Shown here: positions 4,565 to 36,727 of the stretch, one piece after another
Layout of the letters: every line of letters begins with the position of its first letter
Numbering within the stretch: the first letter of the stretch is position 1
From: a virus
DNA length: 64,000 bases
IMG/VR virus record: IMGVR_UViG_3300029913_000003
Location: 128,001 to 192,000 of that record
Direction: 5' to 3' (one strand)
Notes under the pieces: generated by a model
Told to the model about the DNA's origin: nothing
Databases searched by the model: none
Seen by the model: the letters and a program-made list of their open reading frames with translations, nothing else
Made by a program: the position numbers and the translations under genes

Positions 4565-4852
4565 ATGGAATACGACGAAAAAGAAACTGAGCTTGCTAAA
4601 TATCTTAAAAATAGCACAGCATTAAGAAATTTATATAGACAATGTATATCTTACGGACTTAATAATTCAGGTGAAGAATGGACAGATTGGATAAATGCAG
4701 GTGATGAATTTGCAAAAATTTCATTTGATATTTATCACCACGGATTTAAATTTAAACAAGAAACTTTAACTAAATTATATAATATGAAATTACCAAATAA
4801 TATAATAGTCGTAAATAGAGTACTAAAATTAATAAAACTTGATAATGAGTAA
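4565..4852 (+). CDS. hypothetical protein
   Basis: 95-aa ORF. Confidence 0.4.
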   Translation: MEYDEKETELAKYLKNSTALRNLYRQCISYGLNNSGEEWTDWINAGDEFAKISFDIYHHGFKFKQETLTKLYNMKLPNNIIVVNRVLKLIKLDNE

Positions 4853-5606
4853 AAAAGAAATTAAAAATAAATATTTTGAATTTACTCCAGAGTGGAGTGG
4901 ATTTAGTATACAATATCATTTAGCAGGATATTATGATACAAAGCCAATACTTCAAATATATTTTATTTGGGGTAAATTATTTTTATATTTACCTTGGAAG
5001 CATTATAAAAAAGTTGAAGTTGAAAAAAATATTAAAGAAAAAAGAAAAGATAAAATTTCTATTTTATCTAATAAAAATATAAAAATAAAGAAAAAATTTG
5101 ATAAGGTTCTTTACGATCAATGTACTGCGCCAACATATGGAGTATATATTCTTGAAAGAAAAATATGGTTTAGTTGTGGAATGAAACACAAAGTTTTTTA
5201 TTTACCTTGGAATTGGGAATGGATAAGAACAAGTTGCCTTGCTAAAAATGATACTTGGATTAATGAAACAAAGAAAAATAGAAATATGGAGTTTTGGAAT
5301 AAAAACAAATGGAAAGATATTATTTTTTCAGAAACATATCCGTATACATATAACACAAAATATGATGATGAACAAAATTGTTTAGCAACAATTAGAGTAC
5401 AAGAACGTGAATGGAGATGGAAATGGTTCACTTGGTTGAAGTTTCCTAGATTAATAAGTAAAGACATTGAAATAGAATTTAGTGATGATATAGGTGAAAG
5501 GAAAGGTACCTGGAAAGGTGGTACAACTGGCTGTAATTATAAAATGAAAAAAGGTGAAACTCCATATGATACTTTAAAAAGAATGGAACGTGAAAGAAAA
5601 TTTTAA
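4839..5606 (+). CDS. hypothetical Trp-rich protein
   Basis: 255-aa ORF that overlaps the upstream ORF by 14 nt. Confidence 0.45.
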   Translation: MIMSKKEIKNKYFEFTPEWSGFSIQYHLAGYYDTKPILQIYFIWGKLFLYLPWKHYKKVEVEKNIKEKRKDKISILSNKNIKIKKKFDKVLYDQCTAPTYGVYILERKIWFSCGMKHKVFYLPWNWEWIRTSCLAKNDTWINETKKNRNMEFWNKNKWKDIIFSETYPYTYNTKYDDEQNCLATIRVQEREWRWKWFTWLKFPRLISKDIEIEFSDDIGERKGTWKGGTTGCNYKMKKGETPYDTLKRMERERKF

Positions 5607-8695: not shown

Positions 8696-10648
8696 TTAAA
8701 ATTCAAATTCTAATAAATCAATAAATTTTTTACCATTTTTAGTTTTAATATCATTTATTGTTATTTTTGATGATATAAGTTGACAGTAATATGTTAATGC
8801 ATTTTTTACATCAATTAAATTTGCACAAGGAGTTTTAATATCAGAAATAACAACATAATCTTCAATATATGATGCAAGAAAATTTGTTTCTACTTTTGAT
8901 TTTTTAGATAATACTAAATTTTTATCTTTATCTAAATATATTGTTATGATATTATTATTTAATTCTATATAACCTTCATTCGGTGTATTATGTACAATTT
9001 TTAATGAAAAATCATTTGTATGTGATGAATCATTTTGATCACTATATGATGAAGCTTGTTCTTTTATACCATTTTTAAAATTAAATTTATTTTTCTTAAT
9101 TACATGTTTACATGGAGGAACATTATATTTATTTTTTAAATATGAAAGATGAAGTTTGATGTGTTTTATTTCTGTATAAATTATAAAATTATAATTATGA
9201 TATCCACATGATCTACCTGCAAAACTTTGAACAATAAAACTTGTTCTATATGTAGAATCATTAACTGTAGTTCTATCAAATAACATTACAATATTTTCTT
9301 TCTCTAATTGATATGATTGCTTCATTTTCTCCTTAATAAATATTATGGTAGGAGCATCTGGTGCATTTTTTAATACATCATTAATAACTTCTTTATCTTT
9401 CTCATAATATGTCAAAGTTTTAAATCCATCAGGTATTAGATTATTTGTATTTGTATTTTTATTTATTCTAACAATATAATATCCTATTTTATTATTAAAG
9501 CTTTCTGCTTCATTTATAAAATGTTTTTCACCTTCTGTTGTTGATAAATCAAATGATTCTCTTAAAAAATTATTTTTTAAAAAATATTCTAAGCCTTTGT
9601 AATTAGGTCCGTGAGATAATTCAATAGTGTTCTTTCTTTTATATAAAATATTACCAACATGTTCTTCATACGGAGTTGCTGATATAGAAAATAAGAAAAT
9701 ATTTTTTTTTGATAAATCAGTTGAACCATTTAAATTTATACCATTTTTTTGAAGATAACTATTCATAGCACTATCAACATTTGATGCTAAATGAGCTTCA
9801 TCAATAAATATAATACAATTATTTAAATCACCTACTTTATTTTTTCTTGACCAACGAATTAAATCTGGATTATGCATAATACCATTCCTCTTTAATATTT
9901 TTTGATCATCTTGCCGACACTCTCCATGAGATATGTCAGTTTTTAATTGTTCTTTATTTGAATTATCACACATTGGAGTTATTAATACACTACTTCTAAA
10001 TTTCAAATTTAGATATTCTCTTAATTCTTGATAAGTTTCTAATAAATATATTATATTACGTACAACACCAGTTTTACCTGCTTGAGTTTCTGCAGTTAAC
10101 ATATTATACCTACTATGTTTTGAATTAAGTTTTGATGATAACATATTATATATGCAACTTAATGATGCAAAAATCTGATCATCAAATACGTGTGATTTAT
10201 CATTAATATTATCAGTTCTATTTAATTTTTCTAATTTGATGCCAGTTAGACGATATATTTCAGAAATCAATTTATTAATACGAAATTTTATACTATGAGC
10301 TAAATTAGTATTTGCTGGAATAGTTGTGGTGGTGGTAGTTGTTTTACTATTACTATTAGCAGATTTTATTAATTGGTGTTTTTTATTATATACAATATCT
10401 TTTAGATTTTCAATATCATATTTAGTACATTTATCATTTTTAATTCTAATATCTATTAATTTATTAATTGCAATAAGTGCTTTTTTTCGATTAGTATTCC
10501 ATTTCTTACTATATAAAGCATCAACTAATTGATCATTGCTATAACGACTAAAATCAAATTTTCTTACGTATGGTTTATTATTTTTAGTAAGTTGACCATT
10601 AATTAAATTTCTTTTAGCTTTAACACTAATAATGTTATTATTTACCAT
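8696..10648 (-). CDS. SF2 DEAH-box helicase downstream of cas3, possibly a CRISPR accessory
   Basis: Motif I TAETQAGKTGVV, motif II IIFIDEAH, motif III FSISAT, and a motif VI-like QSFAGRSCG. There is also a poly-Thr linker. Confidence 0.55.
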   Translation of the reverse strand: MVNNNIISVKAKRNLINGQLTKNNKPYVRKFDFSRYSNDQLVDALYSKKWNTNRKKALIAINKLIDIRIKNDKCTKYDIENLKDIVYNKKHQLIKSANSNSKTTTTTTTIPANTNLAHSIKFRINKLISEIYRLTGIKLEKLNRTDNINDKSHVFDDQIFASLSCIYNMLSSKLNSKHSRYNMLTAETQAGKTGVVRNIIYLLETYQELREYLNLKFRSSVLITPMCDNSNKEQLKTDISHGECRQDDQKILKRNGIMHNPDLIRWSRKNKVGDLNNCIIFIDEAHLASNVDSAMNSYLQKNGINLNGSTDLSKKNIFLFSISATPYEEHVGNILYKRKNTIELSHGPNYKGLEYFLKNNFLRESFDLSTTEGEKHFINEAESFNNKIGYYIVRINKNTNTNNLIPDGFKTLTYYEKDKEVINDVLKNAPDAPTIIFIKEKMKQSYQLEKENIVMLFDRTTVNDSTYRTSFIVQSFAGRSCGYHNYNFIIYTEIKHIKLHLSYLKNKYNVPPCKHVIKKNKFNFKNGIKEQASSYSDQNDSSHTNDFSLKIVHNTPNEGYIELNNNIITIYLDKDKNLVLSKKSKVETNFLASYIEDYVVISDIKTPCANLIDVKNALTYYCQLISSKITINDIKTKNGKKFIDLLEFEF

Positions 10649-10740
10649 GGTTATATATTTTAATTACAGACAAATATAAGGATAATATTTGAAACAAACA
10701 AAAAAAGAAAGTATTTTTAACCTTCTTTTTTAAAATTTAA

Positions 10741-13038
10741 TTATATTAAATTATCGTAAATATCATTTTTTACTAATCCTAATTTTTCACAATAAACTTT
10801 ATCAAATGCAATATATGGGGTTTCTTTTTTCCTGGCATAATCTTTAAGTATAGGTAAAGTATATTGATTATTTTTAAATAACGAATATTTATTATAAAAA
10901 AATCTATCATCCTTAATTTTTATAATATTCTTTATTATTCTCTTAATTTTACTATCTAAACCTGTTATTGGTTCAGATTTTTTAATATCTCGATTAAAAT
11001 CTACACTAAATGAGTCCGTCATTTGTCTTTTTTTTGCATATTTATATATACAATATATATCTCCTCCACTTCTTAATTTAGTATTATTATTTTTAATTGT
11101 ATTGTTTTTAGATTTCTCCATCATCTTATACGGTTCAATTTTACATAAATTTAATAAACTTGTTTTTAGTTTAGATGTGATAAACTTTTTTAAATTTTCA
11201 TTATTTTCATTATTAAACATATTATAATATTCATATAATTCATTTATTGAATATAAATTTCCGTTAATAATATGTTTTTTAATAAATGAAATCCATAATT
11301 TATTTAATTCTAAATCATATTGATTTGATATACTAGTGTTTTCTGAGTTTCTAAATTCACTTTTATTTTCATTAAAAAATAAATTTATTTTTGGAGTTTT
11401 ATTTTTTTTATAATAAAAATGTCCCCACCTATCACATCGACCTATTCTTTGTAAAGTAGTTTCTGGAGACATCACACTATCTGTTAAATTTAAAAATGAT
11501 ATATCCATAGATGCTTGTAAAATAGGTGCTGATATAATACTATCTTTATTCAAAATATTTTTATTTTCTTTGCCATATAAATGAATAATTTTATTCATTA
11601 TTTTTTCTTTATCAGAATCTATATATCTACTATGTATTAAAATATCGCCTTTTTTATAACAATATAATCTTTGAGAATTTGAAATAGAATTCATAATAAC
11701 AACTGAATCTTTTTCATTAGTTATTGTATCAATATCATCAATATAATTAATCAAATATTTACCATTATGTGCAGATGTATAATGAGAATTTTTATTTGGT
11801 AAAATTTTAGTTTTTTTATCTATATTTGTTCCATCCCATAAATATTCCATTATAGTTTGTGTAGCACTTAATAATAATGTGTGACTATTTGTTAACATAT
11901 GTCTAGATTTCATGATATTAATAAAACATGCAAATAGTGCATCATCTTTAATTAATTCATGATATTCATCAAAAATCACATCACAATAATTAATAACAAA
12001 TAATCTATTTCTAATAGAATTATTCACATTAGGAGATAAATAATTATCTATATTAGTTATTATAATATCAGATGTAAATTCTTTAGTGTTTTCATTATTT
12101 GTTTTCTGTCTATTACCTGTTAAATATAACTCAACTGATAATTCAACTGATATATTTTTTAATTCTTGTAAAACAGAATTATATACATTTTCAGCAATAA
12201 TATTTCTAGGGCATACCCATATTAATTTTTTATTAGATTTTAATGACCATAATAACCCCAATAATGTTTTACCAAAACCGGCTGGGGCTTTCATTATTGT
12301 AGTTCGATTATTTAATGATTGATTTGCGTAATCAACTTGAGAATCAAAACGAATAGAATCATAATTAATAGGTTTGCTATATACTTTAGTATCTTTATAT
12401 GATAAATTGTTTATTAATTCTTCACAATAATCATCATCATACAATATTTTTTCTTGATCTGATGCTGATACAAGTCTATCAGCAGTTATAACACAAGATC
12501 TTACTAATGAATTTTTAGAATTTGTTAAACTATTTGGTTCATTTAAATAATATAATGGAGTATTGATAGATTTTTCAAAATTTATATCTTCAAATAATAT
12601 ATTTTCATTCATTAAAAAATTATACATTGATAAAATATTTTTTTTATCATCATCACACATATCACTTAAAATTAATGATATATTATCATTACTTATATAA
12701 TTTATTTTTGGTTTAGAATGATGCCAATATATTGAATCTAAAGAATATCTATATTCATCATTATTTAAAATACATGACACAAATGCCCAACTTATTTCAT
12801 GATGAAATATTGGAGAATTAATAAAAGAAATTGTTTTACTTTTTGATTTTATATAATTTTGAAAATCTAAATTACATTTACCTAAATCATGCAATAAACA
12901 AGCTATTGAAATTTGTTTTTCAAGGTCTTCATTTAATGATAACTTTTTTGATAACATCATTCCTATTTTTTTAACTGCTTTTGAATGAGTTATTAATGAT
13001 ATTCCACTACTATTTGATACAATTTCTTCTAATTTCAT
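10741..13038 (-). CDS. cas3: Cas3 with an HD nuclease fused to an SF2 helicase
   Basis: HD motif LLHDLGK near the N-terminus, with further His-containing segments (FHHEISW, WHHSKP) and ITADRLVSASD. Walker A APAGFGKT, DExH VIFDEYHE, SAT LLSAT, and motif VI QRIGRCDR. It sits beside the CRISPR array. Confidence 0.8.
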   Translation of the reverse strand: MKLEEIVSNSSGISLITHSKAVKKIGMMLSKKLSLNEDLEKQISIACLLHDLGKCNLDFQNYIKSKSKTISFINSPIFHHEISWAFVSCILNNDEYRYSLDSIYWHHSKPKINYISNDNISLILSDMCDDDKKNILSMYNFLMNENILFEDINFEKSINTPLYYLNEPNSLTNSKNSLVRSCVITADRLVSASDQEKILYDDDYCEELINNLSYKDTKVYSKPINYDSIRFDSQVDYANQSLNNRTTIMKAPAGFGKTLLGLLWSLKSNKKLIWVCPRNIIAENVYNSVLQELKNISVELSVELYLTGNRQKTNNENTKEFTSDIIITNIDNYLSPNVNNSIRNRLFVINYCDVIFDEYHELIKDDALFACFINIMKSRHMLTNSHTLLLSATQTIMEYLWDGTNIDKKTKILPNKNSHYTSAHNGKYLINYIDDIDTITNEKDSVVIMNSISNSQRLYCYKKGDILIHSRYIDSDKEKIMNKIIHLYGKENKNILNKDSIISAPILQASMDISFLNLTDSVMSPETTLQRIGRCDRWGHFYYKKNKTPKINLFFNENKSEFRNSENTSISNQYDLELNKLWISFIKKHIINGNLYSINELYEYYNMFNNENNENLKKFITSKLKTSLLNLCKIEPYKMMEKSKNNTIKNNNTKLRSGGDIYCIYKYAKKRQMTDSFSVDFNRDIKKSEPITGLDSKIKRIIKNIIKIKDDRFFYNKYSLFKNNQYTLPILKDYARKKETPYIAFDKVYCEKLGLVKNDIYDNLI

Positions 13039-13157
13039 ATTTTTTATTTTAATTGTGAATAAAAATAATTTTTTAATTATTTATAATATAAATCATAAAT
13101 TTAATTACTGATTTATATAAATATAATAAACACATATTTAAATAGTGTCACTATTTT

Positions 13158-15565
13158 GTTGAGATTCCCTTACGGATTTATATAAATAATATCGAATTCG
13201 ACTTCTGTGCGACCTTGTTCGTCGTTGAGACTCCCTTACGGATTTATATAAATAATATCTTCACTTAATGTAATAAATTCTAAATCATGTTGAGACTCCC
13301 TTACGGATTTATATAAATAATATCTTATCATTTTTTTCAAAAATAGAAAGAGAAGTTGAGATTCCCTTACGGATTTATATAAATAATATCTTATCATTCA
13401 GAATTATTTTTTCTTCTTTAGTTGAGACTCCCTTACGGATTTATATAAATAATATCAACTATAGAAACAATAGAAAGAGATTTATTGTTGAGACTCCCTT
13501 ACAGATTTATATAAATAATATCAATATTTGTCATTTGTTTTTCTTCTATATATGTTGAGACTCCATTACGGATTTATATAAATAATATCTAAACTGTCAT
13601 CTAAATGATCATTTGATTTGTTGAGACTCCCTTACGGATTTATATAAATAATATCATTATCTGAATATGCTGCAAATCATAAACTGTTAAGACTCCTTTA
13701 CGGATTTATATAAATAATATCTGCATACAGAATTCACCGTTGTAATTCATTGTTGAGACTCCATTACGGATTTATATAAATAATATCTTTAACAAGTGTC
13801 TTCCCTCCTTTTCTATAGTTGAGATTCCCTTACGGATTTATATAAATAATATCTAAATACTCTGAATATTCAACTGGTAAGAAGTTGAGATTCCCTTACG
13901 GATTTATATAAATAATATCAAAATCATCTGTGAAAATTGGAGTTACACCGTTGAGACTCCCTTACGGATTTATATAAATAATATCAAATTATTTTATAAC
14001 TGAATATCAATCAATGTTGAGACTCCCTTACGGATTTATATAAATAATATCTGTTGTACCTAAAACTAAAACTGTTTCTCTGTTGAGACTCCCTTACGGA
14101 TTTATATAAATAATATCTAATTCTAATTCTAAATCTGTATAATCACCGTTGAGACTCCCTTACGGATTTATATAAATAATATCTTATTTGAAAATCTTTA
14201 CAAGAAAATCAGGGTTGAGACTCCCTTACGGATTTATATAAATAATATCTTACCAATTAAGAAAAAGAATTGATACCTTGTTAAGACTCCCTTACGGATT
14301 TATATAAATAATATCTTATTAATAGATGTGCTGGCACCACCTTCGTTGAGACTCCCTTACGGATTTATATAAATAATATCTTTTGTATTTGAAATAATAT
14401 CACTTCCTTTGTTGAGACTCCCTTACGGATTTATATAAATAATATCTTATATTACTATATTTATTAAATATGATAAGTTGAGACTCCCTTACGGATTTAT
14501 ATAAATAATATCTGAATCACTTTTTGTTTTACGTAGTAATTCGTTGAGACTCCCTTACGGATTTATATAAATAATATCATCAAGAACTTCGGTTGCCTTT
14601 AATTCATTGTTGAGACTCCCTTACGGATTTATATAAATAATATCCTATAACCTCCCTATTTTTTTCATCAACTGTTGAGACTCCCTTACGGATTTATATA
14701 AATAATATCATATAATCACTTCTTTTCCTGCTCTGCTTTGTTGAGACTCCCTTACGGATTTATATAAATAATATCATTGCACTAAAAATGTCATTAATAG
14801 GGTTCGTTGAGACTCCCTTACGGATTTATATAAATAATATCGCACTTTTCCCATTTTTTCTGGCTACACTTGTTGAGACTCCCTTACGGATTTATATAAA
14901 TAATATCATTTCTTCTTTGAATGATTTGTAGAAATATGTTGAGACTCCCTTACGGATTTATATAAATAATATCTAGCGTATTTGATTCTAATAAGCAATA
15001 TGTGTTGAGACTCCCTTACGGATTTATATAAATAATATCACCGATTAACTCTTTTCTTAATTGACTATAGTTGAGACTCCCTTACGGATTTATATAAATA
15101 ATATCTAGCGTATTTAATGTAAATAAGCAATATGTGTTGAGACTCCCTTACGGATTTATATAAATAATATCAAAAGCGAATTCAACATTGACTGACGCTC
15201 GTTGAGACTCCCTTACGGATTTATATAAATAATATCGACAAATTAAATACATATATATAACATATGTTGAGACTCCCTTACGGATTTATATAAATAATAT
15301 CTGATATAATTGAAAGTCAATCATTTTATTTGTTGAGACTCCCTTACGGATTTATATAAATAATATCCTGTTATGTTAGAATAAGTAATTGCACTATGTT
15401 GAGACTCCCTTACGGATTTATATAAATAATATCAAATCTATTTAAAGAGATTGAACAGCTAGAGTTGAGACTCCCTTACGGATTTATATAAATAATATCT
15501 AGCAGAACAGGATAGACATCAATTCATTGGTTGAGACTCCCTTACGGATTTATATAAATAATATC
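13158..15565 (-). CRISPR. CRISPR array with 37 copies of a 36-bp repeat and 36 spacers of 29-31 bp
   Basis: Repeat GTTGAGACTCCCTTACGGATTTATATAAATAATATC with a 66-bp period. A few variants occur, such as GATTCCC, CCATTACGG and GTTAAGACTCCTTTACGG. The strand is inferred from the flanking cas genes and from the variant terminal repeat lying at the 13158 end. Confidence 0.97.
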
Positions 15566-15666
15566 AGGATATTTATAATTAATTGATATTGAGTTATTTA
15601 TAGTATATATTAATAAATAAAAATGAGTTATTAATATACGTATATCATTATATTTATTCATTTTTA
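15566..15666 (-). promoter_or_regulatory. putative CRISPR leader
   Basis: AT-rich 101-bp gap between the cas6 stop and the consensus terminal repeat at 15530. The first repeat at 13158 is a variant, so the leader is placed at this end. Confidence 0.4.
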
Positions 15667-16371
15667 TCATACTAATTTATATTTATCTTTATTTTCTGTT
15701 TTATAAATTGTACCAAATCCAGAACCAGTTGATTGTCCTATACCTAAATTATAAATTTTTTCTGCCACATCAGATGAACAAAATATACTAATGTGACATT
15801 GATTAGCTTCATTTTTGACATTTTTAACCATTATTTTCTTTACTTTATGTGAAGGATGATTTATTATTTTAACATCAAAATCTTTTAAATTAATACCGTT
15901 ATAAATTTTACTCAATTTTTTTATAATATGGTTTTTTACAATATATACGAAATCAGAATCATTTAAAGTTGAATAAGTATATTTCTTTTTATTAATATGC
16001 TTTCTAATAATAAATGGAGATAATGTTGCGAAATGATTCCATCCATTTATAAATTTTTCAAAGATAAAATTAATTTTATTAAATTTCATTCCCCAATTTA
16101 AATCTTGATTAGACATCACTCCACTTATTAAATCATTCAAAAATTCTTCATTTTTTGAAGTTACTACAATAATTCCTCCATTCTTAAATGATAAATGTAA
16201 CTTATCTTCAGTTAGGTTTCCACCATATAAAGATGATATAGAGTAATCATTTTTAGAATCATGATATTTATTATTAACTCCAAGACATTTGTGTATATAA
16301 TAATTAATATATGATTGATTCTTAATCGGTACCAATGTTTTATTTTCTGTAAATTCAATTTTTATTCTCAT
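15667..16371 (-). CDS. cas6: Cas6 crRNA endoribonuclease
   Basis: N-terminus MRIKIEF and the C-terminal glycine-rich loop LGIGQSTGSGFGTIY typical of Cas6. It is immediately adjacent to the array. Confidence 0.65.
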   Translation of the reverse strand: MRIKIEFTENKTLVPIKNQSYINYYIHKCLGVNNKYHDSKNDYSISSLYGGNLTEDKLHLSFKNGGIIVVTSKNEEFLNDLISGVMSNQDLNWGMKFNKINFIFEKFINGWNHFATLSPFIIRKHINKKKYTYSTLNDSDFVYIVKNHIIKKLSKIYNGINLKDFDVKIINHPSHKVKKIMVKNVKNEANQCHISIFCSSDVAEKIYNLGIGQSTGSGFGTIYKTENKDKYKLV

Positions 16372-17254
16372 ATTCTTCTAATTTATTAATATTAATATAA
16401 CTATCTAAATCATTTTCAATCATTTCATCTTCATTTATCAAATCTTCTATCCAAACAAATCCTCCATCTAATAACGTTGCACAACCTTTTGAATTTTTAA
16501 TTTTGTCAACATATTCTGATGTTAAAGGAATTATTATAGAACCACTAATTTTTGTAATATTATCAATTCCTCTAATATTTGTTAATGTAGTTTTTGGATT
16601 TTGACCAATTGTTATTGCTGATTGATTTACAATACCAATAAGAAGATTTGCAATTGGAGTTTTATTATTTTTAACTAATTTTTTACAAAAAATTGTAAAA
16701 TCAGAATTATCATTATATTGTTTAATGAAATTTGCAAATTTTATTTTGCTATTATTTTTTATTTCATTATTAATATCTATAACTAATTTAGAACTACTAT
16801 AATATGTAATAATCTCTTTTATTATATACATTGCAGGTTTTGATTTAACATCATAACCTAATATATTATTAAATAAATTAATCATTTCTATAAATAGATC
16901 AGTAGTTAAATAACATTCTAGATTTTCCCAATAAATAAAACTTCTTTTTTTATCTCTATAGCTATCATAAGCAAATTTATTTGTTTGTATAAACTCATTC
17001 ATATAACACATTTTACCACTAGATTTATTTAAAAATCTTGTTGTATCTATTTTTATATAAGCTAAATTAGCTATATTAAATATATCTGATATAGGTTTAA
17101 TTAATGTATCTCTATATGTTGGACTTGGACGTTCACCCATTAAAACATGCAGCATGTTACTTATTTGATGAACACTTATACTAGGTTTTTGATTATTAGT
17201 TGCTTTTTCAAAAAATCCAGCATCTTTAAATGACAATTTTAAAAAATATTCCAT
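16355..17254 (-). CDS. putative Cascade subunit, Cas5- or Cas8-like; no family motif seen
   Basis: Sits between the Cas7-like and cas6 genes and overlaps cas6 by 17 nt. The call rests on position and size only. Confidence 0.3.
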   Translation of the reverse strand: MEYFLKLSFKDAGFFEKATNNQKPSISVHQISNMLHVLMGERPSPTYRDTLIKPISDIFNIANLAYIKIDTTRFLNKSSGKMCYMNEFIQTNKFAYDSYRDKKRSFIYWENLECYLTTDLFIEMINLFNNILGYDVKSKPAMYIIKEIITYYSSSKLVIDINNEIKNNSKIKFANFIKQYNDNSDFTIFCKKLVKNNKTPIANLLIGIVNQSAITIGQNPKTTLTNIRGIDNITKISGSIIIPLTSEYVDKIKNSKGCATLLDGGFVWIEDLINEDEMIENDLDSYININKLEEYENKN

Positions 17255-17264
17255 ATTATTAGAA

Positions 17265-18338
17265 TTATTTAGCTTCTTTTTGAGATTTTAATTTAGCTTC
17301 TTTTTTTTCTTTTTTATCATCTTTAGCTTTCAATTTAGCATCTATTCTTTTTTTAATTATAATAGATCTCTTATCTGACAATTCTATATCTAAAGTTTTT
17401 GCATTTTCAAAATCATATTCAGTATAAAAATTTTCATTTTCAAAATTTAAATTATCTATAACATCTTTTGTTAATTCAATCCATCCATCAGAATTATTTT
17501 TTTTATCATTAAATACGTCATATACTAATTTAATTTTAAGTTTAGACGTAACAACACTAGATCCAGATTTATAAATATTCATTTTTAGCATTTTATATAA
17601 TAGATTTTTTGTTAGTTCAACAACATCTGTATTGGATAATAAAAAACCATATTCTGGTAATTCAACAACACTATTTGTAATCCTATAATATTTTAATTCC
17701 GAATTAAATGATGGTAATCTTTTTTTCAATAATTCTGAATATAAAGGAAATAAATCTGGATTGAATGCTAATCGATCTAAATTTTTAGAACAACTAATAA
17801 ATTGCATTTGCATTAAATCAATATTACCATCAGTCTCATATGTTATATCTCCTACAGTTTCTTTGTTAAATAATGAAGTATCACTTATTTTTTCACCACT
17901 AACTGTCATAAGTTCTATTTTTGATTTACAATTATTTGTTTGTTCAGCGTCAATTATACATAAAACACTTTTTCTTCTAATTGTTTTATCAATCTCATCT
18001 TCATTCAATGCAAATAAATGACCTCTATTTATAATTGCAGGAGAAGCCAACATTGACACAAGTAAATAATTATTATGCAATATATTTGGAGATTGAAATG
18101 GAATATCATCAATAAAAATATTATGTCTTAAACAATTACTAGAAATTTTTATTTTATAATCATATTCACCATTACTTTTCTGATATATATTTTTTTTTGC
18201 AAATATTAAATTATTATCAGTTTCATACTTTCCACCACTAATTTCATTCCATATCCATTTTTGTCCATTACTATCACAGTTAACAACACCATTACCTTCT
18301 AATTCCATTTTAAATAAAATGTTCTTTACTTTTTTCAT
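17265..18338 (-). CDS. putative Cas7-like backbone subunit with a Lys-rich C-terminal tail
   Basis: N-terminus FKMELEGNGVVNCDSNG loosely resembles the N-terminal Asn/Gly-rich segment seen in Cas7-family proteins. Position in the operon fits. The tail KAKDDKKEKKEAKLKSQKEAK is atypical. Confidence 0.35.
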   Translation of the reverse strand: MKKVKNILFKMELEGNGVVNCDSNGQKWIWNEISGGKYETDNNLIFAKKNIYQKSNGEYDYKIKISSNCLRHNIFIDDIPFQSPNILHNNYLLVSMLASPAIINRGHLFALNEDEIDKTIRRKSVLCIIDAEQTNNCKSKIELMTVSGEKISDTSLFNKETVGDITYETDGNIDLMQMQFISCSKNLDRLAFNPDLFPLYSELLKKRLPSFNSELKYYRITNSVVELPEYGFLLSNTDVVELTKNLLYKMLKMNIYKSGSSVVTSKLKIKLVYDVFNDKKNNSDGWIELTKDVIDNLNFENENFYTEYDFENAKTLDIELSDKRSIIIKKRIDAKLKAKDDKKEKKEAKLKSQKEAK

Positions 18339-18403: not shown

Positions 18404-18667
18404 TTAATTAAAAATATTATTCAATTTTTTCAATTTAATTTTTCTAATCTCATTTTTTCTATAAAAATAAGTATATAAATATTCTTCATCACGTTTAAAA
18501 GATGAATAAGCATTTTTATCATCAGATATCAAATACTGATAATCATCATCATAATTAATAATAAAATGAACAATATAATATCTATCTTTATGATATATTG
18601 AATATGATGTTGTTAAATCTTTTTTACATAATAACTTATCTCCTACATTAAGATTCTGATTCTTCAT
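18404..18667 (-). CDS. GDKLLCKK/RKIKLEKL family member 1, the one proximal to the cas genes
   Basis: MKNQNLNVGDKLLCKK...YFYRKNEIRKIKLKKL. Confidence 0.55.
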   Translation of the reverse strand: MKNQNLNVGDKLLCKKDLTTSYSIYHKDRYYIVHFIINYDDDYQYLISDDKNAYSSFKRDEEYLYTYFYRKNEIRKIKLKKLNNIFN

Positions 18668-18914
18668 AAATTTTTTCTAATTTAATTTTTCTTTCTTCTT
18701 GTTTAGTATAAAAATGTTCAGACATCTCTTTTATGCTAAATGAAAATGGTAATATTCTATCATTTTCATCATTAAAATAATAACAATATTCATAAGGACC
18801 GTATACTACCATAACAATATAATAATTATCAACATATAAATATTTATTTGCTCCAACTAGAAGATTTTTTTTACATAATAATTTATCTTCATCATTAATA
18901 TCCTGTTTCTTCAT
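18648..18914 (-). CDS. GDKLLCKK/RKIKLEKL family member 2
   Basis: MKKQDINDEDKLLCKK...FYTKQEERKIKLEKIYEESES. Confidence 0.55.
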   Translation of the reverse strand: MKKQDINDEDKLLCKKNLLVGANKYLYVDNYYIVMVVYGPYEYCYYFNDENDRILPFSFSIKEMSEHFYTKQEERKIKLEKIYEESES

Positions 18915-19167
18915 AAAGTTTTTCTAATTTTATTTTTCTCTCCTCTTGTTTAGTATAAAAATGTTCATAAAAAAATCTAACGCTATATCTAAAAGAATAA
19001 TATTTTTTTTTATCAAATTCTATATAATAACAATAATCAGTATTATTGTCAAATAATTTAATATCATAAACAATATAATATTTATTTTTATTAAAACTTG
19101 CATATAATTCATTTAAATTTTTTTTACACAATAACTTATCACCTACATTAAGATTCTGATTCTTCAT
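18895..19167 (-). CDS. GDKLLCKK/RKIKLEKL family member 3
   Basis: Conserved termini with a variable core. Confidence 0.55.
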   Translation of the reverse strand: MKNQNLNVGDKLLCKKNLNELYASFNKNKYYIVYDIKLFDNNTDYCYYIEFDKKKYYSFRYSVRFFYEHFYTKQEERKIKLEKLYEETGY

Positions 19168-19414
19168 AAAGTTTTTCTAATTTAATTTTTCTCTCTTCTT
19201 GTTTAGTATAAAAATGATTTAGTAATTCATTTTTATTTAAAAAATATGGATATATTCCATTAGATTCATTAAATATACAGCAGGCAAAACCTTTAAATGA
19301 ATCATTCAGAATTTTATGATAAATATAATATTTACATTCTATAAAATGTGTACTATAATTAGCTATTAAATCTTTTTTACATAATATTTTATCACCTTCA
19401 TTAAAATTATTCAT
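19148..19414 (-). CDS. GDKLLCKK/RKIKLEKL family member 4
   Basis: MNNFNEGDKILCKK...FYTKQEERKIKLEKLYEESES. Confidence 0.55.
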   Translation of the reverse strand: MNNFNEGDKILCKKDLIANYSTHFIECKYYIYHKILNDSFKGFACCIFNESNGIYPYFLNKNELLNHFYTKQEERKIKLEKLYEESES

Positions 19415-19658
19415 AAAGTTTTTCTAATTTGATTTTTCTTTCTTCTTGTTTAGTATAAAAATACTGATGTAAATATGATTCACTAAAAAATGGTAATATT
19501 GTATTGAATTCTGATCTTAAATCATAAAAATATTCACTATAATCAGTTGAAAAATTTTTAATATCATCTACATAATAATATTTATCTTTAATAAATATTT
19601 TATCAATCTCCTCTTTACATAATAATCTATCTCCTACATTAATATTCTGTTTCTTCAT
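19407..19658 (-). CDS. GDKLLCKK/RKIKLEKL family member 5
   Basis: Conserved termini. Confidence 0.55.
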   Translation of the reverse strand: MKKQNINVGDRLLCKEEIDKIFIKDKYYYVDDIKNFSTDYSEYFYDLRSEFNTILPFFSESYLHQYFYTKQEERKIKLEKLYE

Positions 19659-19905
19659 AAAGTTTTTCTAATTTTAATTTTCTAATCTCATTTTTCATAA
19701 AAAAATGACCAACTAAATCATGTTCAGTTAAATAATATGAAAATATATTATTAGATTCACTTATATAACAGCAGTAAAAATCATTAAAAATACCACTAAA
19801 CATATTATCATGAAAAATATAATAATCACCTTCTATAATATGGTTACCATAATAAGTTAAATCCTTTTTACATAATATTTTATCACCATCATTAAAATTA
19901 TTCAT
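19639..19905 (-). CDS. GDKLLCKK/RKIKLEKL family member 6
   Basis: Conserved termini, with the variant FFMKNEIRKLKLEKLYEETEY. Confidence 0.55.
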   Translation of the reverse strand: MNNFNDGDKILCKKDLTYYGNHIIEGDYYIFHDNMFSGIFNDFYCCYISESNNIFSYYLTEHDLVGHFFMKNEIRKLKLEKLYEETEY

Positions 19906-20173
19906 AATTTTCTATTTTATCTAATTTTCTTTTTCTTTCTTCTTGTTTAGTATAAAAATATTCATATAAATCTTCTTCACCACAAAATAATATTAAATTA
20001 TCATCATCATCAAATAAATAATAATAATAAAAATCCACACCGCTTATAGTATTAGAAATAATATAAATTGATATCATAGCATAATATTTGTCTATTTTGA
20101 AATTTTTATTTATATTAATTATATTATATTTACATAATAAATTATCTCCTACTTTAAGATTTTGATTCTTCAT
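19898..20173 (-). CDS. GDKLLCKK/RKIKLEKL family member 7
   Basis: MKNQNLKVGDNLLCK...FYTKQEERKRKLDKIENYE. Confidence 0.55.
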   Translation of the reverse strand: MKNQNLKVGDNLLCKYNIININKNFKIDKYYAMISIYIISNTISGVDFYYYYLFDDDDNLILFCGEEDLYEYFYTKQEERKRKLDKIENYE

Positions 20174-20429
20174 AAAGTTTTTCTAATTTGATTTTTCTTT
20201 CTTCTTGTTTAGTATAAAAATATTCACAAAATTCTCCGTAATATCTAAAATTAACAGGTTGATATTGTTCACATATAAGCATATAAATATAATCAGTATA
20301 ATTATTATTAGTTGGAGTAATTTCACAAACATAATAATATTCAAATTCAATAAGATATGTACTTTCTGAATTAAAAAGATTTTTTTTGCATAATAATTTA
20401 TCTCCTACATTAATATTCTGCTTCTTCAT
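20154..20429 (-). CDS. GDKLLCKK/RKIKLEKL family member 8
   Basis: Conserved termini. Confidence 0.55.
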   Translation of the reverse strand: MKKQNINVGDKLLCKKNLFNSESTYLIEFEYYYVCEITPTNNNYTDYIYMLICEQYQPVNFRYYGEFCEYFYTKQEERKIKLEKLYEESKS

Positions 20430-20679
20430 AAAGTTTTTCTAATTTAATTTTTCTTTCTTCTTGTTTAGTATAAAAATATTTACAAAATTCTTTTTCATCA
20501 CAACATACCAATGATTCGAAATCGTCTAAATAATAGAAATAATAATCTTTACGAGCTACATTAATAATATCAATATATTTAATATAATAATATTTACCTT
20601 TTATAATATATGTAGAATTTGATAAAAAACTAATCTTACATAATAACTTATCTCCAATATTAATATTCTGCTTCTTCAT
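20410..20679 (-). CDS. GDKLLCKK/RKIKLEKL family member 9
   Basis: Conserved termini. Confidence 0.55.
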   Translation of the reverse strand: MKKQNINIGDKLLCKISFLSNSTYIIKGKYYYIKYIDIINVARKDYYFYYLDDFESLVCCDEKEFCKYFYTKQEERKIKLEKLYEEAEY

Positions 20680-20944
20680 TTTTTAATTTTTCTAATTTAA
20701 TTTTTCGTACTTCATTTTTAGTATAAAAATAATCATCAAATTCTTCTATATAATAGAAATCTTTATTGGTATCATCTATTATATTATATTTATAATAAAG
20801 TACATCAATGTCAGCACTCAAAAGTACATCAAAGTCAGCACTCAAAATTATATATTCTACACCTTTCGTTAATGTCAGATATGATTTATTAACATCAATT
20901 TTACACAATAATTTATCTCCTATATTAAAATTTTGATTCTTCAT
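20660..20944 (-). CDS. GDKLLCKK/RKIKLEKL family member 10
   Basis: Start moved to the internal MKNQNFNIGDKLLCK at 20944 to match the family and the 20-nt overlap rule. The ORF-track start at 21022 is probably over-extended. The core carries a 24-bp tandem duplication. Confidence 0.5.
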   Translation of the reverse strand: MKNQNFNIGDKLLCKIDVNKSYLTLTKGVEYIILSADFDVLLSADIDVLYYKYNIIDDTNKDFYYIEEFDDYFYTKNEVRKIKLEKLKNEEAEY

Positions 20945-21212
20945 GAAGTTTTTGTAATTTAATTTTTCTAGTTTCGTTTTTTGTGTAAAAATAAGTATAA
21001 ATATCTTCATATGAACAAACAATATTCATTTTTTCATTTCCTATGGTCATATAATAATATGCATTATCAATATTAAAAAATTTATTATCAATATTAAAAA
21101 ATTTAATATCATAAACAGTATAACATGAATTTAGTATATAATATTCAAAATTTGGATGAAATATACGTTTACATATTAATTCATCTCCTATATTAAGATT
21201 CTGTTCCTTCAT
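20925..21212 (-). CDS. GDKLLCKK/RKIKLEKL family member 11
   Basis: MKEQNLNIGDELICKR...FYTKNETRKIKLQKLHEESKF, with an internal 21-bp tandem duplication. Confidence 0.55.
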   Translation of the reverse strand: MKEQNLNIGDELICKRIFHPNFEYYILNSCYTVYDIKFFNIDNKFFNIDNAYYYMTIGNEKMNIVCSYEDIYTYFYTKNETRKIKLQKLHEESKF

Positions 21213-21462
21213 TACCCAACTTTTTTAATTTAATATTCCTAACTTCCTTCTCAGTGTAAAAAAATTCATAAATATCTTTTTCATACTGAACTTCTACCTT
21301 TACATTATTATCATCAATTATATAAATAAAAGTATAATATTCAGTCTCAAATAAACTATCACTTATAATATATTCGTTCCCTTTATGAATAGATATCTTA
21401 TGATGAATATAATCTTTTTTGCATAATAATTTATCTCCTACTTTAAAATTATGATCCTTCAT
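21193..21462 (-). CDS. GDKLLCKK/RKIKLEKL family member 12
   Basis: Conserved termini. Confidence 0.55.
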   Translation of the reverse strand: MKDHNFKVGDKLLCKKDYIHHKISIHKGNEYIISDSLFETEYYTFIYIIDDNNVKVEVQYEKDIYEFFYTEKEVRNIKLKKLGNEGTES

Positions 21463-21742
21463 TTATTTCATTTAATTTCATGCTTCTAATTTCATTTTTA
21501 GTATAAAAATAAGTATATAAATATCTTTCCATCCAAAATGAATATCGTTCATTATTATCATCAATTATATAATAAAAATATTCATTATAATCCACAAAAA
21601 TATCATTAATTAATCTAATTTCATCAACAACATAATATTTACCTTTTTTAAAAAATAATAATGAAGTATTATTAGATACCAATGATTTTAAATCATTTTT
21701 GCATAATAATTTATCTCCAATATTAAGATTCTGTTTATCCAT
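21449..21742 (-). CDS. GDKLLCKK/RKIKLEKL family member 13
   Basis: Conserved termini. Confidence 0.55.
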   Translation of the reverse strand: MDKQNLNIGDKLLCKNDLKSLVSNNTSLLFFKKGKYYVVDEIRLINDIFVDYNEYFYYIIDDNNERYSFWMERYLYTYFYTKNEIRSMKLNEINEGS

Positions 21743-22058
21743 TTATTTTCTGCAATTTCTTATTTCTTAATTCTTTTTTTTCATAAAAATAATCATGAAA
21801 AAAACTTTCAGACCAAAATGAACATGATTTATTCATTTCTCCATTTATATAATAAATATAATCATCTTGTCCAAATATATGATCACATGTATTCTTATAA
21901 GCATATTTATCATCTATTATTTTTATATCAACAATAGAATAATATTTATCTTTTATAAAATGAGAAAATATTATTAATTTATCATCACTAATTAAATTTT
22001 GAAATAAATCTTTTTTACATAATAACTTATCTCCTAAATTAATATTCTTTTTCGTCAT
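21735..22058 (-). CDS. GDKLLCKK/RKIKLEKL family member 14
   Basis: Conserved termini. Confidence 0.55.
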   Translation of the reverse strand: MTKKNINLGDKLLCKKDLFQNLISDDKLIIFSHFIKDKYYSIVDIKIIDDKYAYKNTCDHIFGQDDYIYYINGEMNKSCSFWSESFFHDYFYEKKELRNKKLQKING

Positions 22059-22305
22059 TTTTTAATTTGTTTAATTTTATTTTTCTTTCTTCTTGTTTAG
22101 TATAAAAAACATCATAAAAATCAACTTTACGTAGATATAATAAATTTTTGCTATTTTTTTCTTTTAATGAATAAAAATTACTACTATAAAATATGTTAGT
22201 ATTAACTATTTCATATTCTCTATCTTTATAAAAAACTTCAGTATAATTATAATAACTATTTTTGCATAATAATTTATCTCCAATATTAATATTCTGTTTA
22301 TCCAT
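22039..22305 (-). CDS. GDKLLCKK/RKIKLEKL family member 15, the most distal
   Basis: MDKQNINIGDKLLCKN...FYTKQEERKIKLNKLKNDEKEY. Confidence 0.55.
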   Translation of the reverse strand: MDKQNINIGDKLLCKNSYYNYTEVFYKDREYEIVNTNIFYSSNFYSLKEKNSKNLLYLRKVDFYDVFYTKQEERKIKLNKLKNDEKEY

Positions 22306-24026: not shown

Positions 24027-25661
24027 ATGATTCAAATAGACGACAAAAAAATATTTTTTCCTCTCAAATACGAACCAAAATCTTACCAAATTGATGGACT
24101 AAATTTTATTAAAAATAGTATATTGACAGGTAAACGTTTTATTTTAGAAAATTTGCCGACTGGGGTTGGTAAGTCATTCATGGTCATAATGCTAGCCAAT
24201 TGGTATAAAGGATTCGTGAATCCAGATGCCAAATTTGATATTCTTACAGCATCGAAGGTACTTCAAGGCCAGTATATCAGAGATTTTCCGTTCATAAATG
24301 ATTATAGAGGCAAATCTAACTATTATTGTAAAGATTTTGATTGTGATTGCGGTACAGCTAAAGAACTCTGTGCTATAATGAAAAAACATTGTGATCAATG
24401 TCCATATGACATTGCTAAAAATTCCTGGATATCTGGAGATATAGGTTTGAGTAATTTTCATCTATTTGATACATTATCATTATTTCAACCTGATATTTTA
24501 AAAAGAAGAGATGGTAATGTACTTATAATTGATGAGTGTCAATCATTCGAAGAAACCTTCTCATCCTATCTTTCCTCAAAATTAAGTTCAAAAACTTTAA
24601 AAAGATGTGGATTTGGATTAAAAGAAATTGAAGAGATTGATAGCAAATATATTTCAAAAATTAAATTTTTAGATAAATATTTAGAATTTTTAGAAAGAAA
24701 GTTAATACCAATGTTAGAGAAAAAAAGAACTCAATTTGAATCTGATATTGCTGGATCATCAAAATCAAAACAAAAAGTAGAGTTATCTAAATATTTACAA
24801 AATATTGATAGTAAACTATTATCGTTTAAACATTTATTTGATTCACATAAAAATGATCCAGATAATGTAGTTCTTGATATCAATAAAAATAAGAGTGAAA
24901 AAAATTATAGTGGGATAGAGTTGGTAACTGAACATATTTTCGTTTATGAGTACCTAAATCAATATGTATGGTCTAAATACGATCATATAATTTTTATGTC
25001 TGCTTCTGTACTCGATTCTAAAATGTTTAGTTTCATTAATGGATTAGATGAAGAATTAACAAGTTATCATGAAATGGATTCTCCTTTTGAATTAAAAAAT
25101 CATCCTATATTTTATATGAAACTTGGTAAAATGTCTTTTTATAGTAAAGAAGAGACTTTTAAGAATCAGATACCTTGGATAAAAAAAATATTAGCTAAAT
25201 ATAAAAACAAAAAAGGAATAATTCACACATCAAATTATGAAATAACAGAATGGTTAAAAGAAAATATTATGGATGAAAGGTTATTATTTCACACTACTGA
25301 AGATAGAAATGAAATTCTTGAAAAACATTTAACAAGTACAGCTCCAACAGTTTTAGTAAGTCCATCTATGATGGAAGGAATTTCTTTAGATGATGAATTA
25401 GCTCGTTTTCAAATAGTGTTAAAAATATCATTCGCAAATTTGGGTAGTAAAAAAATTAAAGCAAGACAAAAAATGATGCCTGAATGGTATAGCTGGAATG
25501 CATGTGTTCAAACAATACAAGAAGTAGGTAGAGGAATTCGTAGTGAAACAGATTACTGCGATACGTTTATATTAGACTCAAACTTTTCAGATTTATTAAA
25601 ATATAATTCTAATATATTACCTAAGCACTTTACAGATTCTATAAAAGTTTTAAAAACATAA
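24027..25661 (+). CDS. DinG/XPD(Rad3)-family SF2 helicase with an FeS-cluster cysteine motif
   Basis: Walker A LPTGVGKS, DExQ LIIDECQ, a four-Cys insert CKDFDCDCGTAKELCAIMKKHCDQC between motifs I and II, and motif VI QEVGRGIRSETDYCDTFILD. Confidence 0.65.
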   Translation: MIQIDDKKIFFPLKYEPKSYQIDGLNFIKNSILTGKRFILENLPTGVGKSFMVIMLANWYKGFVNPDAKFDILTASKVLQGQYIRDFPFINDYRGKSNYYCKDFDCDCGTAKELCAIMKKHCDQCPYDIAKNSWISGDIGLSNFHLFDTLSLFQPDILKRRDGNVLIIDECQSFEETFSSYLSSKLSSKTLKRCGFGLKEIEEIDSKYISKIKFLDKYLEFLERKLIPMLEKKRTQFESDIAGSSKSKQKVELSKYLQNIDSKLLSFKHLFDSHKNDPDNVVLDINKNKSEKNYSGIELVTEHIFVYEYLNQYVWSKYDHIIFMSASVLDSKMFSFINGLDEELTSYHEMDSPFELKNHPIFYMKLGKMSFYSKEETFKNQIPWIKKILAKYKNKKGIIHTSNYEITEWLKENIMDERLLFHTTEDRNEILEKHLTSTAPTVLVSPSMMEGISLDDELARFQIVLKISFANLGSKKIKARQKMMPEWYSWNACVQTIQEVGRGIRSETDYCDTFILDSNFSDLLKYNSNILPKHFTDSIKVLKT

Positions 25662-35788: not shown

Positions 35789-36727
35789 TTAAAATTTTAA
35801 TAATTTATCAAATTCAGCATATTTTTTATTCATTATCATAATATAATTATGTTCCTTTTTAGAATATTCTTCCTTTGCTTTGCATTGTTCTAAATGCACA
35901 TTATACCAATATGACGATTTTATTTCAATTATTAAATCATAATCAGGTAAATAAAAATCAGAATGATATATTCTTGTTTGACCTAAATAATTATATTTTA
36001 AAGATAATCCATTCTCTATTTTAATTATATCTTTGTATTTTAATACAAAATCATTTTCATAAGAACCTTGACAAAATAAATCATCAAAATAAGTTAACTT
36101 AAATCCATTATTTTTATGTTTATTAAAATAATCTTGATTTTGAGAAGGATAATCAAAACCATAATTTTTAAAATTTGTTTTTCTTATTTTATCTTTAACT
36201 GATTCACATTGAGTAGGATATTCTACTCCTAAATTTTTTAAATTCGTTTCTCTTATTTTATCTTTAATTTCTTCATTTTGAAAAACATTTTTACATCCAT
36301 ATCTTATTAAATTAGTATTATCTACTTTGATTTTAATTTCTTCATTTTGATGTGGATTTTCAACTCCATATCTTTCTAAATTTGTATTTTTCATTTTTTC
36401 TTTTATATCTTCTAATTGAAATACATTATCTACTCCATATTTTTCTTGTGTAGCCAACAATCTTTTTTGTTTCATGCACTTAACATCATTACAACATGTT
36501 GTCGATTTTCCATTTTTTGTTTTATTATTATAATTATTATAATTATTATAGTTAATTTTAAATATTTTACCACAATAATCACATTTAACATCTATAATAG
36601 CATGACTGCCTAATGTTAAGTTTTTTACTGGATAATTTATTATATCACCTATTTTGCATTTAGTATCACTATAAATTCTTAAATTATTTTTTGTTATTTT
36701 AATTTCAACATATTTTGATATTATCAT
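35789..36727 (-). CDS. homing-endonuclease-like protein with an N-terminal Cys cluster, tandem ~30-aa YGVxNPxQ repeats and a C-terminal PD-(D/E)xK-like motif
   Basis: Starts MIISK. Contains CDYCG and the repeats TNLERYGVENPHQNEEIK, TNLIRYGCKNVFQNEEIK and TNLKNLGVEYPTQCESVK. Ends with PDYDLIIEIK. It is paralogous in layout to 58266..59234. Confidence 0.4.
   Translation of the reverse strand: MIISKYVEIKITKNNLRIYSDTKCKIGDIINYPVKNLTLGSHAIIDVKCDYCGKIFKINYNNYNNYNNKTKNGKSTTCCNDVKCMKQKRLLATQEKYGVDNVFQLEDIKEKMKNTNLERYGVENPHQNEEIKIKVDNTNLIRYGCKNVFQNEEIKDKIRETNLKNLGVEYPTQCESVKDKIRKTNFKNYGFDYPSQNQDYFNKHKNNGFKLTYFDDLFCQGSYENDFVLKYKDIIKIENGLSLKYNYLGQTRIYHSDFYLPDYDLIIEIKSSYWYNVHLEQCKAKEEYSKKEHNYIMIMNKKYAEFDKLLKF

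Follow-up and report, generated by a model that had tools for sequence, protein, structure and literature searches.

A Cas8-free, I-F2-like hybrid CRISPR-Cas locus in a probable huge phage

Introduction

[quoted passage not shown] Here we analysed a locus of this kind on a 64,000-nucleotide (nt) stretch of viral DNA (IMG/VR record IMGVR_UViG_3300029913_000003, positions 128,001 to 192,000), referred to below as the window. Four cas genes and a CRISPR array occupy positions 10741-18338 of its minus strand. An earlier note, made from the letters alone, had read them as a compact, interference-only type I locus in a very large phage. Our analysis supports that core reading, and places the locus as an I-F2-like hybrid variant that is not a member of subtype I-F2.

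Subtype I-F2 (I-Fv) is known from Shewanella putrefaciens CN-32 (PDB 5O6U, 5O7H, 9G44) and Acinetobacter plasmid pANC7924.1, the latter annotated with cas1f, cas3 (982 amino acids (aa)), cas7fv, cas5fv and cas6f. Its CRISPR-associated complex for antiviral defence (Cascade) consists of Cas5, Cas7 and Cas6 only, and the mechanism of this Cas8-free complex is experimentally established (PMC12956352; PDB 5o6u, 9g44). In this complex a helical domain of Cas5 recognises the protospacer adjacent motif (PAM) and loops of Cas7 guide the non-target strand, whilst Cas3, in the absence of Cas8, docks on Cas5 and Cas7 (PMC12956352). The locus described here has the same three-subunit Cascade, with a homologous Cas7, a Cas5 that has an inserted helical domain and Cas5fv as its best structural match, and a Cas3 nearest Cas3fv. 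Most of its relatives also share the I-F2 gene order cas3-cas7-cas5-cas6-array. By contrast, its Cas6 is of the Cas6/Cas6b family and not Cas6f, its Cas3 carries no Cas2 fusion, cas1 is missing, and its repeats and spacers measure 36/30 nt rather than 27-28/32 nt. Its Cas5 is unrelated in sequence at the profile level, and its carriers appear to be huge phages whereas I-F2 resides in bacterial islands or plasmids.

The CRISPR-Cas systems of huge phages reported by Al-Shayeb et al. 2020 (PMC7162821) resemble this locus in their carriers of hundreds of kb, the lack of Cas1, Cas2 and Cas4, and presumed targets among rival phages or host genes. Backbone proteins of the window moreover match Mahaphage genomes from that study. 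The type I variant described there is however I-C-like and lacks Cas6, with a helicase in place of Cas3, whilst the present locus combines Cas6, a full HD-Cas3 and an I-F2-like effector. The window Cas7 also had no tblastn homolog in those genomes, which are part of the 50,697 GenBank phage records searched.

Vibrio phage ICP1, with a genome of about 125 kb, offers a second phage-borne comparison. Its type I-F system likewise joins a phage-encoded, I-F-related Cascade to Cas3, is compact, is used offensively and lacks Cas11 (PMC10161043). It differs in having Csy1 (Cas8f), Cas1, a Cas2/3 fusion, its own spacer acquisition and 28-nt I-F repeats (PMC10161043). Two further resemblances lie outside type I-F. 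The Cas6 of the window matches Cas6b and TIGR01877 models, as do Cas6 proteins of type I-B and type III systems, and its array shares its architecture and an identical 3' 14-mer with a Bacteroidota array from a Bernardetiaceae genome. Its effector partners are nevertheless I-F2-like, unlike those of types I-B and III, and the Bernardetiaceae genome has a guanine plus cytosine (GC) content of 53.5% against 22% for the window.

In the literature that we searched, no paper tied I-F2 or I-Fv to huge, jumbo or mega-phages, and an earlier description in a 2022 survey of virus-encoded CRISPR is possible. The Cas7 clade had already been seen by curators, since Pfam has a family named Cas7fv-like. The general phenomenon is thus known, and the hybrid version is not described in the searchable literature.

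The cas genes encode an I-F2-like effector and a Cas6b-type processing enzyme

All five open reading frames (ORFs) that the earlier note had placed on the minus strand, of 357, 299, 234, 765 and 650 aa, are present there. Four of them are the Cas7, Cas5, Cas6 and Cas3 genes, totalling ~5 kb, and the roles it had assigned to these four hold, with Cas5 selected from its looser label of a Cas5/8-like candidate.

The 357-aa protein (17265..18338) is a Cas7fv/Cas7f2-like backbone subunit, identified by profile matches. It matched the NCBIfam model cas_Cas7fv (E = 2.1e-19) at 70 bits, which is under the 200-bit equivalog cut-off, and the PADLOC models Cas7fv (4.4e-13) and Cas7f. Sequence matches in the PDB fell on 5o6u_C and 9g44_F, the solved I-F2 backbone proteins, at 1e-7. 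Identity to the annotated Acinetobacter Cas7fv of pANC7924.1 was 27% over 280 aa (E = 4e-15), and homologs of the window protein are tagged PF28157 Cas7fv-like. The C-terminal ~35 residues (window 17265-17380) form a Lys-rich tail, KKRIDAKLKAKDDKKEKKEAKLKSQKEAK, which has no counterpart in Cas7fv and is thinly covered in relatives. Speculatively, this tail may guide a DNA strand in place of Cas11.

The 299-aa protein (16355..17254, minus strand) is Cas5 by fold only. It has an RNA recognition motif-type core with an inserted helical domain at about residues 109-206, and its best structural match was Cas5fv. Sequence similarity between this family and Cas5fv was undetectable, including at the profile level.

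The 234-aa protein (15667..16371, minus strand) is a CRISPR RNA (crRNA) endoribonuclease of the Cas6/Cas6b family. It matched PADLOC Cas6b (6.5e-36), TIGR01877 (6.1e-22, over its cut-off) and Pfam Cas_Cas6_C (4.8e-12), and the glycine-rich loop GIGQSTGSGFG picked out in the earlier note corresponds to residues 210-220. Cas6f was absent from its model matches, and BLASTP against annotated Cas6f gave an E value of only 0.11.

The 765-aa Cas3 (10741..13038, minus strand) joins an N-terminal HD nuclease to a superfamily 2 (SF2) helicase. Its best PADLOC match was Cas3fv (6.5e-66), followed by Cas3b (7.6e-38). It also matched TIGR01596 cas3_HD over the cut-off (7.2e-17) and the Pfam families Cas3_HD, DEAD and Cas3-like_C_2. 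The HD domain begins at residue 16, and the motifs LLHDLGK, GFGKT, DEYH, SAT and QRIGRCDR are all intact. Its closest plasmid relatives come from Acinetobacter plasmids (982 aa, the size of a Cas2-3 fusion) and a Legionella longbeachae plasmid. Residue 2 of the window protein aligns with about residue 107 of the 982-aa Acinetobacter Cas3, indicating that the Cas2 module is missing.

The array has 36-nt repeats and spacers of about 30 nt

The 37-repeat array reported in the earlier note is present (13158..15565) and fills the gene-free gap between the 234-aa and 765-aa ORFs with a tandem period of 66 nt. Its 36-nt repeat, GATATTATTTATATAAATCCGTAAGGGAGTCTCAAC, runs on the minus strand from 15565 down to 13158; 28 of the 37 copies are identical and the remaining nine carry one or two changes. 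All 36 spacers are different and measure 29-31 nt. Repeats at the cas6 end are all perfect, and variants build up towards cas3, where the array closes with an extra spacer (13129-13157) and a decayed 38th repeat (13093..13128, minus strand) that matches at 23 of 36 positions. From this polarity and the orientation of the flanking genes, we place a putative leader in the AT-rich segment that separates the first repeat from the cas6 stop (15566..15666, minus strand), with transcription on the minus strand. A scan for sigma-70 promoters and terminators gave no signal over that expected by chance in DNA of 22% GC.

The 3' half of the repeat (...ATTCCGCAAGGGAATCACAAC) is common across the family. 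A 5-bp hairpin is predicted at positions 16-20/26-30, followed by CACAAC. Over 13 distinct family repeats, 86% of the pairing cells were compatible with this hairpin compared with 14-58% in slid controls, and at one of its pairs C-G is replaced in compensatory fashion by U-A (twice) and by A-U (once). Thermodynamically the hairpin is weak. It would fit a Cas6 substrate that leaves a short 5' handle, with the cut site placed by inference. An Rfam search returned no CRISPR direct-repeat match for the repeat, and a literature string search returned primer sequences only. The GTTG...CACAAC repeats of 36/30 architecture may resemble type VI-B (Cas13b) repeats of Bacteroidota, a likeness that was not used as evidence.

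Spacers 7 and 9 (region 15070-15105 and 14938-14973) are identical at 26 of 30 positions, ACATATTGCTTATT[TACATTA/AGAATCA]AATACGCTA, whilst 200 shuffles gave a maximum of 21. They therefore derive from one variable target that was captured twice, and this double capture suggests real acquisition events, presumably with Cas1-Cas2 of the host acting in trans. Mean spacer GC is 26%, near the 22% of the phage, as would fit targets in the host or in other phages that compete for it. Targets of these kinds have been published for other huge phages (PMC7162821; PMC13037316). No self-target was found in the window (best match 16 nt). By blastn, the 36 window spacers had no match in phages or plasmids, and the 137 spacers of relatives had none in phages or among the related loci that we collected. 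Exact scans of IMG/VR with the consensus of spacers 7 and 9 and with 22-mers of spacers 1, 19 and 36 also returned no match. A PAM was not derivable because no spacer target was found.

The locus lacks adaptation genes and Cas8

The earlier note had stated that the 64 kb contain neither cas1, cas2 and cas4 nor a Cas8-sized large subunit. Both absences were borne out by a Pfam scan of the 75 window ORFs (E<=1e-4), which returned 25 families and none of these. Cas1, Cas2 and Cas4 were likewise absent from Pfam tables covering 10 kb on either side of the loci of six other lineages, and from the best 25 PADLOC families listed for 136 flank ORFs of eight IMG/VR loci. The locus cannot acquire spacers by itself. 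Neither Cas8 nor Cas11 appeared in the Pfam scan of the 75 ORFs or among the PADLOC matches listed, leaving three Cascade genes only. The missing Cas8 is explained by an I-F2-like ancestry.

The locus is I-F2-like but not I-F2

Cas3 with its HD and SF2 helicase domains is the signature of type I, and the multi-subunit effector of this type is represented by Cas7 (by sequence) and Cas5 (by fold only) adjoining the 37-repeat array. The earlier note had left the subtype unassignable. It can be narrowed to I-F2-like, though several hallmarks of I-F2 fail. Cas8 and Cas11 are absent as in I-F2, and Cas7 and Cas5 conform to it partly. Four hallmarks are missing, namely Cas6f, the Cas2-Cas3 fusion, an adjacent cas1, and an array of 27-28-nt repeats and 32-nt spacers, in place of which the window and all of its relatives have 36/30 arrays. 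The locus therefore stands outside I-F2 and is most aptly seen as a hybrid, in which a Cas6/Cas6b-type processing module and a 36/30 array accompany an I-F2-like effector. Its carriers appear to be huge phages.

We also considered type IV CRISPR-Cas and rejected it. Cas3 is present, Cas7 matches Cas7fv and Cas7f and no Csf model, and a DinG-like helicase of the window is not conserved with the module.

Related loci form an almost purely viral family

Related loci were gathered by exact-protein look-ups, a profile scan and a repeat-pattern scan of IMG/VR, and a repeat-pattern scan of GTDB species genomes. Every locus with a homolog of the 299-aa protein also has cas7 and cas6, and cas3 too wherever the sequence is long enough, in ~17 distinct lineages. 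The 36/30 array begins just after cas6 wherever the sequence covers that region. This retention of core and array implies selection for function. The array of the window does lie between the Cascade genes and cas3, as the earlier note had observed; the family has at least two other gene orders. Five lineages have cas7-cas5-cas6-array-cas3, as in the window, 11 have cas3-cas7-cas5-cas6-array, and one has cas6 first.

The earlier note had called such systems rare; this one is not rare in metagenomes. The Cas5-like family comprises 545 clusters at 50% identity. For Cas7 there are at least 161 clusters at 90% identity; each bears the tag PF28157 "Cas7fv-like" and none has a name. The module occurs on contigs of up to 711 kb, and the IMG/VR viral catalogue lists about 20 relatives. 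A two-repeat pattern was matched by 18 stretches, which lie on 13 contigs of IMG/VR that reach 597 kb. In one genome each of 185,579 species it occurred on 2 contigs only. The first is a phage-like 44,475-bp contig binned in a Bacteroidetes metagenome-assembled genome (MAG), and the same contig was found in a Joint Genome Institute (JGI) metagenome (our locus L009). By tblastn, the window Cas7 had no homolog in any of the 50,697 GenBank phage records. The family is almost purely viral, found mostly in the viral catalogue and almost never in bacterial genomes.

The second contig is chromosomal and belongs to the Bernardetiaceae MAG (DAISIL010000108.1; L031), with a histidine kinase, a malic enzyme and 53.5% GC. 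It ends in a truncated 36/30 array (19-230) with the repeat GTTGTCAAATCCCTAAATTTGCAAGGGAATCACAAC, which shares the identical 3' 14-mer AAGGGAATCACAAC with repeats of the phage family. None of the four cas genes is on this contig. This repeat type thus exists in Bacteroidota chromosomes. A metagenome scan with the host-type repeat pattern gave a single chance match in high-GC, non-CRISPR DNA, and neither it nor the scan of species genomes turned up a bacterial counterpart with adaptation genes.

Comparison with the closest relative phage (L004) showed very uneven divergence. Identity was 88% for the DinG-like helicase, 86% for Cas6, 76% for a 252-aa protein and 70% for the 650-aa helicase, and only 53% for Cas7, 44% for Cas3 and 41% for Cas5 (window 10741-18338 compared with L004 8904-17584). 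The repeats of the two phages differ at 10 of 36 positions. Either Cas5, Cas7 and Cas3 evolve at a much higher rate than Cas6 and the backbone, or the three were swapped as a cassette. Fast divergence of the effector would fit conflict-driven evolution, short of proof. Spacer content is wholly different between lineages.

The window probably derives from a huge phage

The earlier note had argued for a large virus or jumbo phage. This is supported by the relationship of the window to Lak phages and to Mahaphage genomes of 634-735 kb, and judged from its sequence the replicon is probably a Mahaphage/Lak-like huge phage. One line of evidence comes from its two largest genes, which are adjacent and encode proteins of 1061 aa (47541-50726, plus strand) and 1144 aa (50747-54181, plus strand). 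At 36-41% identity, the pair matches neighbouring genes in phages LR756501-4 and LR745206 (634-735 kb), and it is syntenic with LR756501 (735 kb) at 462908-470178. More distant kin occur in Lak phages, Sphingomonas phage PAU, and Tenacibaculum, Chryseobacterium and Flavobacterium phages, and the 1061-aa protein is kin to gp264 of phage PAU. Pfam and PDB sequence searches matched neither protein, and the two genes have the look of a pair conserved in huge phages.

Identical Cas proteins are encoded on a 346,561-bp contig. They are also found on k141_15744 of ENA ERZ27249201 and on longer JGI/Logan contigs, and identical cas genes recur in roughly 18 contigs and samples. Source samples include ERZ27249201 and SRR8554894, and those of the relatives include JGI bog/peat samples. 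GC content along the window is 18-27% (22% overall), and gene content includes UvsW-type and phrog helicases and many ORFans. No tRNA gene was found in the window, and its 64 kb yielded no identifiable terminase, capsid or portal gene. By analogy with described huge phages, the host is likely a member of the Bacteroidota (PMC7162821).

Proposed function and alternative explanations

We consider it likely that the locus is a working interference system of a huge phage that operates much as I-F2 does. The steps that follow, including handle length, stoichiometry, targets and host, are proposed by analogy. Minus-strand transcription of the array would start from the leader on the cas6 side, and Cas6 would cut each 36-nt repeat near the 3'-proximal hairpin, leaving a predicted 5' handle of ~8 nt (GUCUCAAC) before the 30-nt spacer. 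The crRNA would be held by a minimal Cascade of one Cas5, about 5-6 Cas7 and Cas6, without Cas8 or Cas11, as in I-F2. The helical insertion of Cas5 would read the PAM and Cas7 loops would guide the displaced strand, again as in I-F2. The resulting R-loop would recruit the stand-alone HD-helicase Cas3, leading to degradation of the target DNA. Spacers may be acquired in trans by Cas1-Cas2 of the host, or inherited. Probable targets are competing phages or other mobile elements with similarly AT-rich DNA, host genes being less likely.

One alternative is that the locus is an ordinary, diverged member of I-F2 that has lost cas1 and the Cas2 domain. Cas7fv and Cas3fv are indeed the best profiles of Cas7 and Cas3, Cas5fv is the nearest fold to Cas5, Cas8 and Cas11 are absent, and the cas3-cas7-cas5-cas6-array order of most relatives mirrors that of I-F2. 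We nevertheless judge this unlikely. Cas6 belongs to the Cas6/Cas6b family and has no sequence relation to Cas6f, and the 36/30 array departs from the 27-28/32 of I-F2 (PMC12956352). Cas7 reaches 70 of the 200 bits set as the equivalog cut-off, and Cas5 has no detectable similarity to Cas5fv. These differences are common to the whole family and hence are no one-off decay. Going further than the hybrid variant that we favour, the family could be a phage-restricted, undescribed type I subtype of chimeric make-up, with an I-F2-like effector (Cas5, Cas7 and Cas3), a Cas6/Cas6b-type enzyme and a Bacteroidota-style 36/30 array. Its repeat would be compatible with host arrays and its spacers loaded in trans by host Cas1-Cas2, the effector genes would outpace the backbone through an arms race with rival phages, and it would rank among the smallest complete Cascade-Cas3 systems. 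We put this forward tentatively, as possible but on balance doubtful.

Other readings concern whether the locus works at all, how it acts and what carries it. A host-derived remnant, captured and now decaying without function, is very improbable. The adaptation module is missing, no spacer has a known target and the last repeats are mutated, but all four ORFs are intact with their catalytic motifs and 28 of the 37 repeats are identical. Core and array are moreover kept in the ~17 divergent lineages, with spacers that differ fully between them. Action mainly by binding, silencing host or rival genes, has a precedent in the repressive phage CRISPR proposed for some huge phages (PMC7162821), and a type IV-like DinG mechanism could be read from the PADLOC typeIV_DinG match of the helicase at 24027-25661. 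Both seem improbable to us. Cas3 is present in every related locus that is long enough, and the HD and helicase motifs of the window Cas3 are intact, whilst Cas7 matches Cas7fv and Cas7f and no type IV (Csf) model. The DinG-like helicase is itself distant, on the other strand, better matched by phrog_2488 and confined to closest relatives. Finally, a bacterial chromosome segment or large plasmid might be suspected from the lack of capsid, terminase and portal genes in the 64 kb, from the one related contig in a Bacteroidetes MAG, and from an OmpA-domain protein and a glycosyltransferase in the window. We regard such a replicon as highly unlikely. Against it stand the absence of tRNA genes, the absence of any housekeeping family among the 25 Pfam families of the 75 ORFs, and the synteny of the largest proteins with curated 634-735 kb phage genomes and Lak phages. 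The ~20 relatives in IMG/VR, a repeat pattern found in 18 viral stretches against 2 contigs in 185,579 species, and the UvsW-type helicase, homing endonuclease, Acb3 and ThyA of the window point the same way.

Current understanding is not overturned by an I-F2-like hybrid of this kind, because huge-phage CRISPR without adaptation genes is well documented. It does mean that a Cas8-free minimal Cascade, known from few bacterial islands and plasmids, is also a large, diverse and almost purely viral family, which differs in its crRNA-processing enzyme and repeat type. With 36 spacers, two variants of one target and a matching Bacteroidota repeat type, the locus offers a concrete case for spacer supply without Cas1-Cas2. 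Conflict-driven selection on PAM reading and Cas3 docking would be expected to produce the faster divergence of Cas5, Cas7 and Cas3. A four-gene Cascade-Cas3 set of ~5 kb is also a possible compact DNA-targeting tool.

Neighbouring genes and minor features

The 650-aa protein (8696..10648, minus strand) next to cas3 is a true SF2 DEAH helicase, as the earlier note had it, with AGKT, DEAH and SAT motifs and a DEAH/RHA-like fold matching HrpA, Prp43 and DHX helicases. Its proposed membership of the CRISPR module did not stand. Among related loci it occurs with cas genes only in the closest relative phage, and two homologs (61% and ~49% identity) have no cas gene in the sequence available. The DinG-like helicase (544 aa, 24027-25661, plus strand) matched PADLOC typeIV_DinG at 5.8e-52 and phrog_2488 at 2.2e-81. 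It too was rejected as part of the module, as it lies ~5.7 kb off on the opposite strand and only closest relatives have it. Both helicases belong to the phage backbone and not among the cas genes.

Immediately upstream of cas7, and on its strand, 15 tandem genes with overlapping starts and stops (18404-22305, minus strand) encode one family of 83-120 aa, typically ~88 aa. Between a conserved N-terminus (MKxQNLNVGDKLLCKK) and a conserved C-terminus (YFYTKQEERKIKLEKLYEE), these proteins have a hypervariable middle. The closest relative phage (L004/L011) has 12 copies in the corresponding place, and the family was not found at other cas loci. One copy (18404-18667) had no Pfam, NCBIfam or PADLOC match. 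The earlier note had mentioned paralog families among the surrounding genes, and three further entries of its list were also recovered: an HNH homing endonuclease (58266-59234), a D12-class (Dam-type) methylase (38985-39806) and a match to M15 peptidases. The window further encodes thymidylate synthase (ThyA, 39961-40803), a DUF7487 protein (35789-36727), an ExoX-like exonuclease motif protein (61283-62104) and the OmpA-domain protein (33791-34981).

A homolog of Acb3, an anti-defence protein that inhibits the cyclic oligonucleotide-based antiphage signalling system (CBASS), is encoded at 4839-5606 on the plus strand (Pfam PF25187, E = 3e-46). An Acb3 gene also lies two genes away from the helicase homolog in another related sequence (L033).

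Several relatives showed variations of the locus. Extra repeats lie between cas3 and cas7 in one (L037, 9472-10000), the cas6-first order is that of L046, and two others (L007, L024) have two repeat variants or additional degenerate repeats within one locus. TnpB/Cas12f-like (IS605 OrfB) genes and homing endonucleases are found near several related cas loci (L012-L027, L010).

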